DNA of 16,076 bases from a virus. Its lineage: Duplodnaviria; Heunggongvirae; Uroviricota; Caudoviricetes. Location: the IMG/VR virus record IMGVR_UViG_2690316153_000005, one strand, 5' to 3'. Every line of letters starts with the position of its first letter. The first letter of the stretch is position 1. A program made the translations under genes and the position numbers. Positions 6,627-16,076 of this stretch are shown in pieces. The notes below the pieces were generated by a model, which did not search any database, had not been told where the DNA came from, and saw only the letters and a list, made by a program, of their open reading frames with translations.

Positions 6627-6681
6627 AAAAAAATCCCGTAAAAAAAGCCGCACAGGCGGCCTTTAGTGATGAAGGGTAAAG

Positions 6682-7014
6682 TTAAACGATGCTGATTGCC
6701 GTTCCGGCAAACGCGGTCCGTTTTTTCGTCTCGTCGCTGGCAGCCTCCGGCCAGAGCACATCCTCATAACGGAACGTGCCGGACTTGTAGAACGTCAGCG
6801 TGGTGCTGGTCTGGTCAGCAGCAACCGCAAGAATGCCAACGGCAGCACCGTCGGTGGTGCCATCCCACGCAACCAGCTTACGGCTGGAGGTGTCCAGCAT
6901 CAGCGGGGTCATTGCAGGCGCTTTCGCACTCAATCCGCCGGGCGCGGTTGCGGTATGAGCCGGGTCACTGTTGCCCTGCGGCTGGTAATGGGTAAAGGTT
7001 TCTTTGCTCGTCAT
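6682..7014 (-). CDS. D: Capsid decoration protein D (lambda gpD-like), 110 aa
   Basis: ORF track ORF 6682..7020; the lambda-like start [27 protein letters not shown] is at 7014. Confidence 0.9.
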
Positions 7015-8343: not shown

Positions 8344-12024
<3,681 letters not shown>

Positions 12025-12050
<26 letters not shown>

Positions 12051-12570
12051 TCAGCAACCCCGGTATCAGTTCATCCAGCGCGGCTGCTTTGTTCATGGCT
12101 TTGATGATATCCCGTTTCAGGAAATCAACATGTCGGTTTTCCAGTTCCGGAAAACGCCGCTGCACCGACAGGGGGAGCCCGTCGAGAATACTGGCAATTT
12201 CACCTGCGATCCGCGACAACACGAAAGTACAGAATGCGGTTTCCACCACTTCAGCGGAGTCTCTGGCATTCTTCAGTTCCTGTGCGTCGGCCTGCGCACG
12301 CGTAAGTCGATGGCGTTCGTACTCAATAGTTCCTGGCTGGAGATCTGCCTCGCTGGCCTGCCGCAGTTCTTCAACCTCCCGGCGCAGCTTTTCGTTCTCA
12401 ATTTCAGCATCCCTTTCGGCATACCATTTTATGACGGCGGCAGAGTCATAAAGCACCTCATTACCCTTGCCACCGCCTCGCAGAACGGGCATTCCCTGTT
12501 CCTGCCAGTTCTGAATGGTACGGATACTCGCACCGAAAATGTCAGCCAGCTGCTTTTTGTTGACTTCCAT
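12025..12570 (-). CDS. Nu1: Terminase small subunit Nu1 (lambda gpNu1-like), 181 aa
   Basis: MEVNKKQLADIFGASIRTIQNWQEQGMPVLRGGGKGNEVLYDSAAVIKWYAERDAEIENEKLRREVEELRQASEADLQ... matches recalled lambda Nu1 (winged-helix DNA-binding N-terminus). Confidence 0.92.
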
Positions 12571-12790
12571 TGTTCATTCCACGGCCAAAAACAGAGAAAG
12601 GAAACGACAAAGGCCCAAAAGTTCGTTTTCAGCACCTGTCGTTTCCTTTCTTTTCAGGGGGTATTTTAAATAAAAACATTAAGTTACGACGAAGAAGAAC
12701 GGAAACGCCTTAAACCGGAAAATTTTCATAAATAGCGAAAACCCGCGAGGTCGCCGCCCCGTAGCCTGCCGGATCGCCGGAAAGGACCCA
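12571..12790 (-). promoter_or_regulatory. cos packaging site region: cosB (Nu1/IHF binding) between the Nu1 start and cosN, cosN at 12748..12759, and the cosQ side to the right
   Basis: Plus strand 12748..12759 aggtcgccgccc is the reverse complement of the lambda 12-nt cohesive end GGGCGGCGACCT. Flanking sequence on both sides closely resembles the recalled lambda left end (reverse complement of 12661..12747) and right end (12760..12789 cgtagcctgccggatcgccggaaaggaccc). Confidence 0.8.
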
Positions 12791-12815
12791 ATAAATGATA
12801 ATAATTATCATTTAT
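12791..12815. promoter_or_regulatory. Perfect 25-bp palindrome ATAAATGATAAT-A-ATTATCATTTAT, Fur-box-like
   Basis: Read directly: 12791..12802 is the reverse complement of 12804..12815 around a central A at 12803. The core TGATAATAATTATCA fits the 7-1-7 Fur-box inverted repeat TGATAATnATTATCA. Confidence 0.5.
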
Positions 12816-12996
12816 ATAAATACCATCACACATCCCACGTACACCATAAAACCACGACAAATAATCAATTTTGTCCAAGTCATGCATTAATTGATCTGTG
12901 TCAACTTAACGTAAAGACATCTTAAGACAATACAAATCAGCAGCACTGAACACGGAAAAACACAATGTCATCAAAAAATAAAGCTTCCCAAACCAG

Positions 12997-13137
12997 ATGA
13001 TTAATCAAATCCATATTGCCCTTGAACGTAAGGGATCGGGTAATTTTTCGGCATGGGTTATTGAAGCCTGCAGGAGAAGGCTGGCAACAGATGCAAAGCA
13101 CCTGCGCCCGGCCAGCATGAAAAATAACGAGAAATGA
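12997..13137 (+). CDS. Small putative DNA-binding protein (46 aa) resembling a small ORF I recall near the lambda right end; possibly ribbon-helix-helix / DUF3950 (YlcI-like)
   Basis: Hand translation of the plus strand: MINQIHIALERKGSGNFSAWVIEACRRRLATDAKHLRPASMKNNEK. It resembles the recalled lambda right-end ORF segment ...MIEQINIALEQKGSGNFSAWVIEACRRRL.... A short out-of-frame ORF (12965..13000, MSSKNKASQTR) precedes it. Below the ORF track size cutoff. Confidence 0.5.
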   Translation: MINQIHIALERKGSGNFSAWVIEACRRRLATDAKHLRPASMKNNEK

Positions 13138-13269
13138 ACGTTCGGTTACAGGAACCGGTAGCTACTGTCTTCTAACAATATTTCATCTTCATATCCGGCG
13201 AAACAAGACTTTACCCTGCAGGGATGTACTGAATAGCAACAGAGTGATAATTAACTTCTGATAAAATAA

Positions 13270-13596
13270 TCAGGGTGCTGAAGGACTAAAGATAAATGTT
13301 TTCTTCACGCCTTTACGCGGCTTGTCCTTCTCAAATCGCCATTTTGCCATCGCCTTTACAACCTGCTCATCAAACAGATGGTGCGGCTCTGAACGGATAA
13401 ACTCAATTCGGGTGACAGTACCATCAGCACCAATATCAAACTTCACATCAACCCGTCCCTTTATATAATTTGCCGCGGCATAGGCCGGATATTGTGGTAA
13501 TGCCTTAACCAACTGTCGAGGCATATCTGTTTTATGTTGCGTACAGCCCATAACCAAAGAAGACAACAAAATAATTAACGGAAGATTTCTTTTCAT
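13270..13596 (-). CDS. Predicted outer-membrane lipoprotein consisting essentially of a TonB C-terminal-domain-like fold (108 aa from the second ATG; 113 aa from the ATG at 13611)
   Basis: N-terminus MKRNLPLIILLSSLVMGC has a basic n-region, hydrophobic core and lipobox-like VMGC with +2 Thr. Residues 40-105 (PAYAAANYIKGRVDVKFDIGADGTVTRIEFIRSEPHHLFDEQVVKAMAKWRFEKDKPRKGVKKTFIF) align by eye with the recalled E. coli TonB C-terminal domain ([59 protein letters not shown]). Flanked by low-GC DNA. Confidence 0.7.
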   Translation of the reverse strand: MKRNLPLIILLSSLVMGCTQHKTDMPRQLVKALPQYPAYAAANYIKGRVDVKFDIGADGTVTRIEFIRSEPHHLFDEQVVKAMAKWRFEKDKPRKGVKKTFIFSPSAP

Positions 13597-13616
13597 TTTT
13601 ATTCCCGGCATAGATA

Positions 13617-13633
13617 AGAATAAGTCTTATTCT
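13617..13633. promoter_or_regulatory. Perfect 8-1-8 palindrome AGAATAAG-T-CTTATTCT immediately upstream of the lipoprotein gene
   Basis: Read directly; lies 6 to 37 nt upstream of the two candidate start codons on the minus strand. Confidence 0.4.
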
Positions 13634-13940
13634 AACAATGCAGCCCTGTCGGTCATCAATCCTCTGCTTAATGGCAATGACAATTATCCGACTTAAATCA
13701 CAAATCAGACACATGACATAACAGAGTTTGCGAGGTAACACATCGTCCGGTTTCTTCCACCATCGCACCGGACCAGCGACCATGAGGGGACAACGCCGCG
13801 CTCCGTTTACGCGGTAAACCCCGGTGTGTATCGTTTTTGATTATCCCCGCACACTCTCGCAGAGGAGTCTCCCTGTCGGGCTGCGGTCTCTGTTAATGCA
13901 GGAATACGGCGACAATACCGCGCATGGATAATAAGGTCGC

Positions 13941-14165
13941 TCAACACACTGGCTGTAATTCAGCGGATACCATTCGGCATTTATCAGTATTCATCACACA
14001 CTCAACGGTGAATTCTTCATGCGTGGCATTCACTTCATATGTTCGTGAATAACATTCAGTGCATTTACCTCTGAACACCTCTTCAAGCAGAACACGGCCA
14101 TGTTGCAAAACACGGAACGGAATTGTTCCCTGAAAAGGTTTTACCGTTACCTGCAATTTCTTCAT
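13941..14165 (-). CDS. Cys-rich small protein (74 aa), function unknown, translationally coupled to Rz
   Basis: ORF track protein MKKLQVTVKPFQGTIPFRVLQHGRVLLEEVFRGKCTECYSRTYEVNATHEEFTVECVMNTDKCRMVSAELQPVC; contains a CxxC motif and three further Cys. Its ATG overlaps the Rz stop as ATGA (14165..14162). I do not recognise the family. Confidence 0.5.
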   Translation of the reverse strand: MKKLQVTVKPFQGTIPFRVLQHGRVLLEEVFRGKCTECYSRTYEVNATHEEFTVECVMNTDKCRMVSAELQPVC

Positions 14166-14656
14166 ACATCCTCCGGATAATAAAAAGCCTGCTTAGTACA
14201 CTGAGTGCGGATATAGTCCTGTGCCCCTTCCAGTTGCTTCTGCATCGTCATCAGCCGCTCTCTGAGGGTGAAATAATCCCGTGTAACGGTGTCTGCCAGT
14301 TGGGGGCCGGTTGCATTATCCACGCGGGCGGTGCCGGTGGCTTCACGCACGGGACCTGGACAGGTGGCGTTGATCCGCAGGCTGCGGTGACCAGCGGCAA
14401 CGTCAGCGCGAAGAGTTTCATTTTCAGCTCTCGCATCGGCTAATTCCCTCGAGTATCTGGCATCAAGTGCAGCAACATCACGCTGGCGCTGCTGCATATC
14501 AGTAATGGTTGCATTTGCCAGCTCCAGCTCACTGACTTTTTTATCGCGCTGCTCTTTGTAGGTTATGGCGTTATCACGGTAATGATTCAGCCCCAGACTA
14601 AGCGCACCACAGGCCACCAGCAGGGCAATGATGACCACGCACAGTACGCGGTTCAT
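14162..14656 (-). CDS. Rz: Spanin inner-membrane subunit Rz (i-spanin), 164 aa
   Basis: MNRVLCVVIIALLVACGALSLGLNHYRDNAITYKEQRDKKVSELELANATITDMQQRQRDVAALDARYSRELADARAENETLRADVAAGHRSLRINATC... resembles recalled lambda Rz: N-terminal TM segment, NHYRDNAITYK motif, coiled-coil periplasmic domain. Confidence 0.88.
   Translation of the reverse strand: MNRVLCVVIIALLVACGALSLGLNHYRDNAITYKEQRDKKVSELELANATITDMQQRQRDVAALDARYSRELADARAENETLRADVAAGHRSLRINATCPGPVREATGTARVDNATGPQLADTVTRDYFTLRERLMTMQKQLEGAQDYIRTQCTKQAFYYPEDV
14251..14436 (-). CDS. Rz1: Spanin outer-membrane lipoprotein subunit Rz1 (o-spanin), embedded in the +1 frame of Rz
   Basis: MRELKMKLFALTLPLVTAACGSTPPVQVPCVKPPAPPAWIMQPAPNWQTPLHGIISPSESG has lipobox LVTAAC, a proline-rich body and conserved PPAWIMQP / GIISPSE motifs as in lambda Rz1; entirely nested in Rz. 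Confidence 0.85.
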   Translation of the reverse strand: MRELKMKLFALTLPLVTAACGSTPPVQVPCVKPPAPPAWIMQPAPNWQTPLHGIISPSESG

Positions 14657-14657
14657 T

Positions 14658-14795
14658 TCACCACCAGCGTATCTGACCGATGAAATAACCGGAGGCCATA
14701 ATCACAAACACCAGCCAGATAAGAATGAACTTCCAGGTGGATAATTTTTCAGCCATCACTCGAATCTCCCGAATCAGTTTGCTAAAATCAAACAC
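14658..14795 (-). CDS. Unannotated small single-pass membrane peptide (45 aa from GTG at 14795; 32 aa from ATG at 14756) immediately upstream of Rz
   Basis: Hand translation of the minus strand: (V/M)FDFSKLIREIRVMAEKLSTWKFILIWLVFVIMASGYFIGQIRWW. AAGGAGA sits 4 nt upstream of the GTG and GGGAGA 8 nt upstream of the internal ATG. The TGA stop (14660..14658) is 1 nt from the Rz ATG (14656). Below the ORF track size cutoff. Confidence 0.45.
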   Translation of the reverse strand: MFDFSKLIREIRVMAEKLSTWKFILIWLVFVIMASGYFIGQIRWW

Positions 14796-14954: not shown

Positions 14955-15488
14955 TTATCTGTCAATTCCCCAGCACGCCAGCGCACTCTCCTGGTCGCGA
15001 CGGGATACCTGACCGTAACAGTTATTTGAGCGAATACGGCAGTCTCTGCCACCGTCCTTAATCCACCAGCGAATCGCCTCACACGCTCCCCTGCGATCAC
15101 CTGCATTAATTCGTCTGTAAAACGTCGACGGGAAACATTTACCGGGACCAATGTTGTACGGACAGAATGACGCGATCCCCGCTTTCTGGGGTTCGGTCAG
15201 TGGCACTTTGATGTTTTTCTCCACCCATGCCAGCGCCTTATCACGTTCAATGGCGTTAACCTGGTCGCATTTCTCCTTCGACAACTTCATGCCCGGGACG
15301 ACAGGTTTACTATCCACCAGAATGGCACCGCGACAGATGGTCCAGATACCCGCGCCATCACGGTATGCCGTGGTGTGGTTACCTTCCTTTTCATCCAGAA
15401 ACTGGTCGAGGATTTCAGGCGCAGGCGCACCTGCGGCAATCAGCGCCAGAACGGCAGCCGACAGGCCGTATCTGATTTTTGCGTTCAT
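14955..15488 (-). CDS. R: SAR endolysin, T4-lysozyme-family (GH24) muramidase, phage-21 R / DLP12 RrrD type, 177 aa
   Basis: MNAKIRYGLSAAVLALIAAGAPAPEILDQFLDEKEGNHTTAYRDGAGIWTICRG... has an N-terminal weakly hydrophobic Gly/Ala-rich signal-anchor-release-like segment and an E-x8-D-x5-T catalytic triad pattern (EGNHTTAYRDGAGIWT). It follows a pinholin-type holin. Confidence 0.85.
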   Translation of the reverse strand: MNAKIRYGLSAAVLALIAAGAPAPEILDQFLDEKEGNHTTAYRDGAGIWTICRGAILVDSKPVVPGMKLSKEKCDQVNAIERDKALAWVEKNIKVPLTEPQKAGIASFCPYNIGPGKCFPSTFYRRINAGDRRGACEAIRWWIKDGGRDCRIRSNNCYGQVSRRDQESALACWGIDR

Positions 15489-15538: not shown

Positions 15539-15886
15539 TCAGGCCAGCGGTGGAGTCTTCAGAGAACCAGTAATTATTCCCGGTAGTTTTCCTCTGTAGG
15601 TTATCAACACATCCTGCGCCTCTAAAATGATGGGCCGCTTTTCCGGCAACGGACCATCCCCTTCACATAACCCGGCAGCAACATCCATGAAAAACTGCTT
15701 CGCCTGCTTTTTCGCCTCAGCTTCGTAAAACTCCAGCGTGGCACCTTCAGTACGGTCAAGACTAATCGCCACATATGGCAACAACAGTGACGGATACCCA
15801 CCAATTTCCAGTGCCACAGTAACAGTAATCTTATCCGGGTAATTATTTATCCCTTTAACAACCAGTTCGTATTTTTTATTCATCAC
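15539..15886 (-). CDS. Conserved prophage protein of unknown function between holin and endolysin (115 aa), probably DUF1327 / YdfR-like
   Basis: MMNKKYELVVKGINNYPDKITVTVALEIGGYPSLLLPYVAISLDRTEGATLEFYEAEAKKQAKQFF...; its ATG overlaps the holin stop region (holin ends 15888). The YdfR-like assignment rests on position between ess and rrr homologues and on recollection, not on an alignment. Confidence 0.55.
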   Translation of the reverse strand: MMNKKYELVVKGINNYPDKITVTVALEIGGYPSLLLPYVAISLDRTEGATLEFYEAEAKKQAKQFFMDVAAGLCEGDGPLPEKRPIILEAQDVLITYRGKLPGIITGSLKTPPLA

Positions 15887-15887
15887 T

Positions 15888-16076
15888 TTACTCTCCCCGC
15901 GCCGCCTTACGCCGGTCCTCTCTGATTTTGAAATACAGGTTAGTCAGATACGTCAGCAGGCCAAACAGCAGACTCCCCAGCACACCTATCGCCACCCACT
16001 GGGACGGAGAGACTTTGTCCAGCAGCTGCAGTAACCAGTATCCCGTCCCCACCGCTGACGTGGTGTATGACACACC
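15888..16076 (-). CDS. S: Class II holin / pinholin of the phage 21 S21 type, N-terminus truncated by the window end
   Basis: ...[60 protein letters not shown] closely resembles recalled S21 (…[51 protein letters not shown]). The ORF continues to the window edge. Confidence 0.85.

Follow-up and report, generated by a model that had tools for sequence, protein, structure and literature searches.

A predicted lipoprotein with a TonB C-terminal domain in the post-lysis moron slot of a lambdoid prophage: a candidate competitor for TonB boxes

Siderophores and vitamin B12 enter the cell through TonB-dependent transporters, as do many phages, the group B colicins, microcins and antibiotics conjugated to siderophores. 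In E. coli, iron import through these transporters is inhibited by an overexpressed periplasmic TonB domain, and TonB-box peptides lower the sensitivity to colicins and to phage phi80, as stated in PMC9841981, which cites Howard 2001 and Tuckman 1992. Phage products are also described that act on a transporter of this type: Llp and Cor, both outer-membrane lipoproteins, target FhuA from within the periplasm (bioRxiv 10.64898/2026.03.26.714494).

The gene considered here lies in a stretch of viral DNA of 16,076 nucleotides (IMG/VR record IMGVR_UViG_2690316153_000005; the whole stretch is called the window below), the minus strand of which is recognisable as a lambdoid prophage late region. Its product is a plausible candidate for a phage lysogenic-conversion or exclusion lipoprotein operating at TonB-dependent transporters. 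The gene is already present in databases and hence is no unrecognised oddity: annotations in hundreds of genomes name it “TonB family protein” or “TonB C-terminal domain protein”, the latter name is used in phage 21, where the gene sits beside bor, and older annotations call it “partial tonB-like” or “TonB fragment”. At the same time, full-text literature searches returned no study on the function of a TonB_C lipoprotein, whether phage-borne or chromosomal, and the definition of the family, its recurrent post-lysis placement, the boundaries of the cassette and the association with Fur boxes were not found described elsewhere.

The gene, its product and its cassette

The earlier note had marked an open reading frame at 13270-13611 with a product of 108-113 aa. 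The frame exists in the list of open reading frames, on the minus strand, and encodes 113 aa when opened by the ATG at 13611; this codon, however, is an upstream in-frame ATG, and the true start is likely the second ATG at 13596, giving a protein of 108 aa (MKRNLPL...). The latter start is preferred because it is used by the RefSeq entry WP_000828067.1 and shared by the phage 21 clade, which is 70% identical. The coordinates of the gene and of its surroundings are collected in Table 1.

Table 1. Features of the late region discussed in the text (window coordinates; a point in the strand column marks features given without strand).
Feature	Position	Strand	Basis
Terminase gene A	10125-12050	-	follows cosN
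Nu1	12025-12570	-	follows cosN
cosN, exact lambda match GGGCGGCGACCT	12748..12759	-	sequence match
DUF3950 (YlcI/YnfO family) gene, convergent	12997..13137	+	Pfam DUF3950 8.1e-19
Moron cassette: lipoprotein gene with ~150 bp upstream and ~120 bp downstream, ~600 bp	13149..13751	.	colinearity break, GC
CDS of the 108-aa predicted lipoprotein with TonB C-terminal domain	13270..13596, including the stop codon	-	ORF list, RefSeq start, Pfam/NCBIfam/PDB matches
TonB_C domain, residues 26-104 (E. coli TonB 153-231), with YP motif and strand beta3	13285..13521	-	gapless alignment, AlphaFold2, Foldseek
Predicted lipoprotein signal peptide MKRNLPLIILLSSLVMGC	13543..13596	-	PROSITE-type lipobox rule, clade comparison
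Weak Fur-box-like element GATAAGAATAAGTCTTATT, 13/19, overlapping the -10	13613..13634	.	consensus and PWM
Promoter-like site (inferred): ATGACC, 16 nt, TAGAAT, with upstream TG (extended -10; TG-n-TAGAAT)	13629..13656	-	consensus scan, clade conservation
74-aa gene fragment	13941-14165	-	late-region listing
Rz i-spanin, end of the lysis cassette upstream of the moron gene	14162..14656	-	Pfam Phage_lysis 9.9e-48, PHROG 13
Rz1 o-spanin, embedded in Rz	14251-14436	-	ORF with lipobox and Pro-rich sequence
Lysozyme	14955-15488	-	domain/ORF assignments
DUF1327	15539-15886	-	domain/ORF assignments
Holin	15888-16073	-	domain/ORF assignments

The N-terminus of the protein, MKRNLPLIILLSSLVMG-C18, matches a scripted PROSITE PS51257-type rule, in line with the lipoprotein signal and the Thr at +2 claimed before: the n-region MKR is followed by the h-region NLPLIILLSSLV and the lipobox L-V-M-G-C18, with the Cys18 codon at 13543-13545. 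The rule asks for a positively charged n-region, a hydrophobic h-region and a lipobox of the form [LVI..][..][AGS]-C no further than ~35 residues from the N-terminus. Its strict form is matched by 34 members of a set of 36 relatives, and Asp is found at +2 in none of the 36. The h-region varies between the clades and the lipobox cysteine is retained, and throughout the family the spacing between the lipid-bearing cysteine and the YP motif is limited to 15-24 residues. Judging by the Thr at +2, i.e., by a lipobox devoid of the Asp Lol-avoidance signal, the mature protein is predicted to be sorted to the outer membrane.

Beyond the signal, the protein belongs to the TonB_C domain family, as it scores 57 bits with Pfam TonB_C PF03544 (cut-off 24.6, E 2.7e-15) and 56.9 bits with TIGR01352 (cut-off 27.1), and a phmmer search of PDB sequences retrieves the C-terminal domains (CTDs) of E. 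coli and Salmonella TonB at ~1e-16, aligned over 79 residues without a gap; 32 of the 79 residues (40.5%) are identical to E. coli TonB 153-231. The AlphaFold2 model, built from 13 family sequences, has a pLDDT of 86.6 overall and above 90 over residues 28-103, with helices at 38-42 and 76-83 and strands at 47-55, 61-70 and 94-103. Its best Foldseek matches (probability 1.00, target-normalised TM 0.88-0.92, rmsd 1.0-1.4 A) are 1u07, the monomeric TonB CTD, 2gsk_B, TonB with BtuB (1.0 A over 79 columns), and 2grx_C, TonB with FhuA (1.2 A). The profile search and the superposition on the TonB CTD, both proposed in the earlier note as checks, thus confirmed a free-standing domain of this type with the same fold.

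The resemblance extends to residues relevant to TonB. Y36-P37 aligns with TonB Y163-P164, the five TonB aromatic positions are retained (F180, F202, W213, Y215, which is Phe here, and F230), and the length of the beta3 strand matches. Two further positions are changed. TonB Gln160, a classic site of TonB-box suppressors, corresponds to Leu33 at a position that is variable across the family; TonB Arg166, which reportedly contacts the FhuA cork, corresponds to Tyr39, and Tyr occupies this position in 30 of 33 relatives. Since both residues are replaced, the interface is probably not simply that of TonB. The family also displays the motifs SEPxHLFD and KPxxGMxK, absent from TonB, along with the signature YPxYA, which holds the Tyr standing for Arg166.

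The transmembrane anchor and the Pro-rich spacer of TonB are missing, as had been recognised from the sequence alone: homology begins at TonB residue 153, and the stretch between Cys18 and the start of this homology is only 8 residues long. Full-length models of TonB equivalogs (NCBIfam PRK10819 equivalogs) reach at best 74 bits against cut-offs of 265-448. Because the anchor, the spacer, the equivalog score and Arg166 all fail, the protein is not considered to be a TonB energy transducer.

The gene resides in a discrete cassette. Phage vB_EcoS-569R3 is colinear with the window over 12985-13147 and 13744-14672 and lacks the segment between, and the microhomology CGGTT is found at both cassette junctions. 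The GC content is 43% in the gene, 43-45% in the cassette and 55% in the window, with local windows at 37-44% against flanks at 53-56%. By the criteria of insertion and base composition, the cassette is a moron. The low-GC island and the moron slot between Rz and cos that had been described earlier were both recovered, the former as a measured GC trough in the Rz-cos interval, the latter through the absence of the cassette from vB_EcoS-569R3 and the presence of both bor and a TonB_C gene at this place in phage 21. The convergent DUF3950 gene accompanies the TonB_C gene in 79 of 80 IMG/VR loci and is its constant neighbour in E. coli phages; it is also found in phages free of the moron.

As for expression, the promoter consensus scan by itself was no better than chance; the block TTGT(T/C)AGAATAAGAC at the promoter-like site is conserved between both E. 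coli clades, with diverging flanks. A terminator search yielded one weak site only, within the upstream ORF, and hairpins 3' of the stop codon, inspected by eye, were unconvincing. Q-antiterminated readthrough into the gene, which runs in the direction of the late operon, is expected by analogy with lambda biology. With a putative promoter of its own and this orientation, the gene would be expressed in lysogens as well as late in infection. PADLOC defence models gave zero matches to the protein at E <= 0.1.

Relatives, distribution and Fur boxes

The window allele is present in 415 of 5426 complete E. coli genomes and occurs, e.g., in EPEC E2348/69, in Stx1a phages, in JLK-2012 and in Lys8385Vzw; all of its 482 matches are chromosomal. 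A sister clade, represented by UTI89 and the classic phage 21, is present in 1225 of the 5426 genomes, so carriage of the gene may reach about 30% in this set. The exact window protein was found on 569 contigs under the label “TonB family protein”. Many clade-2 alleles are frameshifted at the C-terminus and lose beta3, which implies that the gene is dispensable in many prophages.

The wider family, delineated by an exhaustive profile search and a second, indexed one, comprises lipoprotein-TonB_C proteins of 104-132 aa with 34-51% identity from Enterobacterales. Its prophage copies, in Rahnella, Sodalis, Serratia and a Klebsiella phage, lie on the late strand after the lysis genes and before the terminase, and the same post-lysis slot is occupied in five host genera. 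Other copies are chromosomal and reside outside prophages, alone and with no conserved partner, in Salmonella Choleraesuis, Pantoea agglomerans, Klebsiella, Serratia grimesii and Erwinia. In a neighbour-joining tree, which carries no bootstrap and is indicative, the family is monophyletic and separated by a long branch from E. coli TonB. The same tree pairs phage copies with chromosomal copies of related hosts (Serratia with Serratia, a Klebsiella phage with Raoultella) and, being indicative in this respect as well, suggests several independent exchanges between phages and chromosomes. The gene is carried by phages with unrelated terminases, i.e., the lambda-type Nu1/A of the window and phage 21 versus the HNH + terminase arrangement of JLK-2012; hence, its function is apparently not bound to one virion type and probably does not concern the phage's own receptor.

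A match of 15-17/19 to the Fur consensus, situated 10-60 nt upstream of the start, was detected in 10 of 21 family loci, whereas only 0.5% of the 250-nt control windows taken at these loci attain this level; the ten loci include orthologues and represent about five independent lineages. Strong boxes precede chromosomal copies in Klebsiella, Raoultella, Serratia and Erwinia, as well as prophage copies in Serratia (L092, 16/19) and Sodalis (L136, 17/19). The element upstream of the window copy attains 13/19, which is also reached by 7% of the control windows; scored with a PWM trained on the boxes of the relatives, it is the second-best distinct locus in 16 kb, at 11 versus 19-29 for the sites of the relatives. 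No Fur box was found upstream of the phage 21 copy. Overall, Fur control is ascribed to the family and is not claimed for the window copy; the boxes appear to tie the family to TonB and iron physiology.

A perfect Fur-type palindrome, TGATAATAATTATCA at 12796-12810, was considered as an operator of the module and rejected: it is conserved beside cosQ in lambda and phage 21 and is best read as a cos-adjacent element outside the moron.

Proposed function and competing explanations

The reading that we tentatively prefer, with slightly less than half of our confidence behind it, is in essence the hypothesis of the earlier note: the protein is a candidate TonB-box competitor, an outer-membrane, periplasm-facing TonB CTD uncoupled from energy. 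A tether of ~8-15 residues would keep the TonB-CTD fold, as modelled, just beneath the outer membrane, its predicted location. The exposed beta3 edge could then pair with TonB-box strands, those of the transporters and perhaps also those of group B colicins entering the cell. Since the protein has no ExbB/ExbD-coupled anchor, such a complex would be unproductive and would compete with the host TonB. The lysogen would become less sensitive to TonB-dependent phages (T1, phi80 type), colicins and microcins, at a cost to TonB-dependent uptake. Non-productive occupation of TonB boxes is, in our analysis, the most economical of the mechanisms that can be predicted. The TonB_C fold, the retained aromatic residues and YP, the lipobox, the selection on the gene (see below), the discrete cassette, the recurrent slot and the occurrence in phages with unrelated terminases were counted in its favour, with the periplasmic TonB domain, the TonB-box peptides, Llp/Cor and the Fur boxes of the relatives as precedents; counted against it were the Arg166/Gln160 substitutions, the weak Fur-like site at this locus, the chance-level promoter, the want of a clear terminator and the frameshifted clade-2 alleles.

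As implied by their Fur boxes, the chromosomal relatives would be derepressed by iron starvation, which is a paradox if the protein does nothing but inhibit iron uptake. Together with the Arg166/Gln160 changes, this keeps alive two rival explanations, an accessory role in transport and a different binding partner, and it also motivates a variant with a decoy directed mainly at the TonB boxes of toxins entering the cell. In its broadest form, conceivable but doubtful, this variant would make the family a set of often Fur-controlled “anti-TonB” decoys stationed under receptors that are abundant in iron starvation; they would intercept TonB-box strands, chiefly the ones brought in by group B colicins, microcins or phage components, and would thereby blunt the entry of such parasites and spare most of the nutrient uptake. 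The host gene would have been taken repeatedly by lambdoid phages into the post-lysis moron slot as a lysogenic-conversion or exclusion function and would be carried as such by as many as ~30% of the complete E. coli genomes.

Strong Fur boxes in 10/21 family loci against 0.5% of the control windows, the orphan chromosomal copies outside prophages and the five TonB-relevant aromatic residues all speak for a positive accessory factor of TonB-dependent transport, an outer-membrane partner induced by iron starvation that aids uptake and improves the iron acquisition of the lysogen. It might act, e.g., by docking the TonB CTD via the conserved aromatic surface, by pre-organising TonB boxes or by handing over periplasmic binding proteins. 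Still, there is no known mechanism by which an un-energised TonB CTD helps transport, the sole cited experiment on free periplasmic TonB domains resulted in inhibition (PMC9841981), and the Fur boxes of the E. coli phage copies are weak or absent; an accessory role is judged unlikely. More improbable is a partner other than TonB boxes, such as peptidoglycan or an abundant envelope protein, with the protein serving as an envelope tether or stabiliser in a Bor-like host-fitness role. The slot shared with bor (phage 21 carries both genes), the replacement of the contact residues Arg166 and Gln160 and the motifs SEPxHLFD and KPxxGMxK, missing in TonB, are consistent with it, but they are set against 40% identity and a near-identical fold to the TonB CTD, with the best superposition on the copies of TonB in transporter complexes, and against the lack of similarity to the Bor, OmpA-like or LysM families.

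The position of the gene directly downstream of Rz/Rz1 in late-operon orientation, seen in every phage examined, and the PHROG 1267 label “Rz-like spanin” could suggest a component of the lysis cassette, i.e., a spanin-like or lysis-timing lipoprotein made late and acting at the outer membrane. The label itself was rejected, since the Rz/Rz1 pair is complete and the product of this gene, which lies 550 bp further downstream, is a globular TonB_C domain and not a Pro-rich o-spanin. The gene is also absent from close phages with the same lysis genes, its chromosomal relatives lie far from lysis genes, and, to our knowledge, lysis by phage 21 is accounted for by S, R and Rz/Rz1 alone; a role in lysis is accordingly given very little credence. 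Least credible, and largely refuted, is a functionless relic, a captured fragment of host tonB decaying in prophages, as the old labels with “partial” and “fragment” and the C-terminal frameshifts of many clade-2 alleles might have it. Between the window gene and the 70%-identical phage 21 allele, purifying selection is strong (dN/dS ~0.13, pN 0.17, pS 0.65), with synonymous sites near saturation across the clades; 34/36 members share a lipoprotein signal that was gained, the members form a monophyletic group apart from TonB, and the exact protein recurs on the 569 contigs. Judged by its sequence, the gene is functional and not a scrap of tonB. A share of our confidence is assigned to none of these readings.

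If TonB-box competition, the preferred reading, is true, prophages would have a novel means of altering their hosts, and a laboratory trick dating from 2001 would have a natural counterpart. The susceptibility of the lysogen to rival toxins, phages and Trojan-horse antibiotics (siderophore conjugates) could shift. Given how common the gene is (415 + 1225 of 5426 genomes, including EPEC E2348/69 and UPEC UTI89, Stx1a phages and phage 21), such a phenotype would matter for phage therapy, colicin ecology and iron-related virulence. Both the association with Fur boxes and the occurrence of relatives in chromosomes pose a question about the TonB system itself as well.

Comparison with known systems

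Among the small outer-membrane lipoproteins of phages, lambda Bor (an Iss-like lipoprotein) resembles the moron protein in its Rz-cos slot, its size and predicted location, its low GC content and its cassette nature. The two have no sequence or domain similarity, however, and Bor is encoded on the opposite strand; phage 21 carries both genes side by side. Llp of T5 and Cor of phi80, N15 and HK022 are likewise small phage lipoproteins, residing in the inner leaflet of the outer membrane and reaching a TonB-dependent transporter from the periplasm. They lock FhuA allosterically, whereas the moron protein would bind the generic TonB box, and their genomic position differs. A Foldseek search of the BFVD viral structures returned nothing at E <= 0.001, i.e., no structural link to Llp or Cor. 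Since the fold is that of the TonB CTD and a BFVD match is lacking, the protein is not a member of the Llp/Cor group but may work similarly.

The chromosomal lipoprotein-TonB_C orphans of Klebsiella, Raoultella, Serratia, Erwinia, Pantoea and Salmonella share the architecture, length and motifs of the moron protein, with 34-55% identity, and are interleaved with the phage copies in the neighbour-joining tree. They differ in residing outside prophages and, in many cases, in possessing the strong Fur boxes that are absent in the window copy.

The CTD of E. coli TonB (~150-239; 1U07, 2GSK chain B, 2GRX chain C) is alike in sequence (40.5% identity), fold, YP, the five aromatic residues and beta3. 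In contrast to TonB, the moron protein is predicted to be lipid-anchored to the opposite membrane, terminates 4 residues sooner, in the Pro-rich tail SPSAP, and carries the substitutions Arg166->Tyr and Gln160->Leu; devoid of the transmembrane anchor and the Pro-rich spacer, it would be unable to couple to ExbB/ExbD. In this respect, the closest functional model is provided by the engineered periplasmic TonB fragments (Howard, Herrmann, Stratilo, Braun 2001, J Bacteriol 183:5885), in which the TonB domain is likewise freed from its energised anchor and which, according to PMC9841981, inhibit iron import through TonB-dependent transporters. Those fragments are soluble, laboratory-made and overexpressed, whereas the moron protein is natural, diverged, phage-borne and, as predicted, lipid-anchored in the outer membrane.

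The Rz–cos slot and its neighbourhood

Comparison of the window with vB_EcoS-569R3, a related phage colinear with it on both sides and lacking the moron cassette, revealed the microhomology CGGTT at both cassette edges (see the table below). Since this motif marks both edges, the cassette is consistent, as judged from sequence, with insertion or deletion through illegitimate recombination. In phage 21 (OL657228.1, 2227-3327), bor and the TonB_C lipoprotein gene are immediate neighbors within the Rz–cos interval, with bor on the opposite strand and the lipoprotein gene on the late strand. Thus, the Rz–cos slot can accommodate two different lipoprotein morons simultaneously.

The 74-aa ORF directly after Rz is found only in some of the related IMG/VR loci, and its match to PHROG 2571 covers only positions 100-172/291; by this partial alignment, it looks like the remnant of a larger gene. 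On the other side of the cassette, 79 of the 80 related viral contigs (L003-L082) have a DUF3950 (YlcI/YnfO) gene facing the TonB_C gene in convergent orientation; the DUF3950 gene is also seen without this partner. Many DUF3950-bearing contigs stop shortly past this gene, and such clustering of contig ends suggests an assembly-breaking repeat boundary there.

Features of the window (nucleotide positions)
Feature	Position	Strand	Remark
Cos-adjacent palindrome	12796-12810		TGATAATAATTATCA
DUF3950 gene	12997-13137	plus	
CGGTT, one edge	13144-13148		
TonB_C gene	13270-13596	minus	PHROG 1267 match
CGGTT, other edge	13747-13751		
74-aa ORF	13941-14165	minus	PHROG 2571 match
Rz/Rz1	14162-14656 and 14251-14436		

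Family label and frameshifted alleles

PHROG 1267, the family containing the TonB_C lipoproteins, carries the label “Rz-like spanin”, which was rejected for this gene as the genuine Rz/Rz1 genes reside elsewhere in the window; the label is almost certainly an annotation error that arose from the gene position and the lipobox. In many phage-21-type (clade 2) alleles (P0010, P0012, P0013, P0015, P0018, P0019, and P0021), a frameshift divergence directly past the WRFEK motif leads to the loss of the beta3 strand, and one cluster of such variants comprises 130 members. These alleles could be pseudogenes that have arisen repeatedly, could mark a hot spot for mutation, or could serve as naturally occurring loss-of-function controls.

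Fur-like motifs

Strong Fur boxes (15-17/19) precede the start codon by 10-60 nt in the related loci L084-L090, L092 (a Serratia prophage), L095, and L136 (a Sodalis prophage). The Fur-boxed copies of the lipoprotein-TonB_C gene, both chromosomal and prophage-borne, come from Klebsiella, Raoultella, Serratia, Erwinia, and Sodalis; no description of iron regulation of this small family was found in the literature searched.

The window itself harbors a perfect 15-bp palindrome identical to the Fur 7-1-7 motif, occurring once vs. 0.02 times expected and situated ~20 bp from cosQ/cosN on the phage-upstream side. The identical motif in the Sodalis prophage (6679-6693) immediately precedes the terminase genes. 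Assignment of the palindrome to the moron was rejected, since it is retained next to cos at the right end of lambda (GATGATAATCATTATCAC) and likewise in phage 21; the palindrome resembles a cos-adjacent element conserved across these phages.
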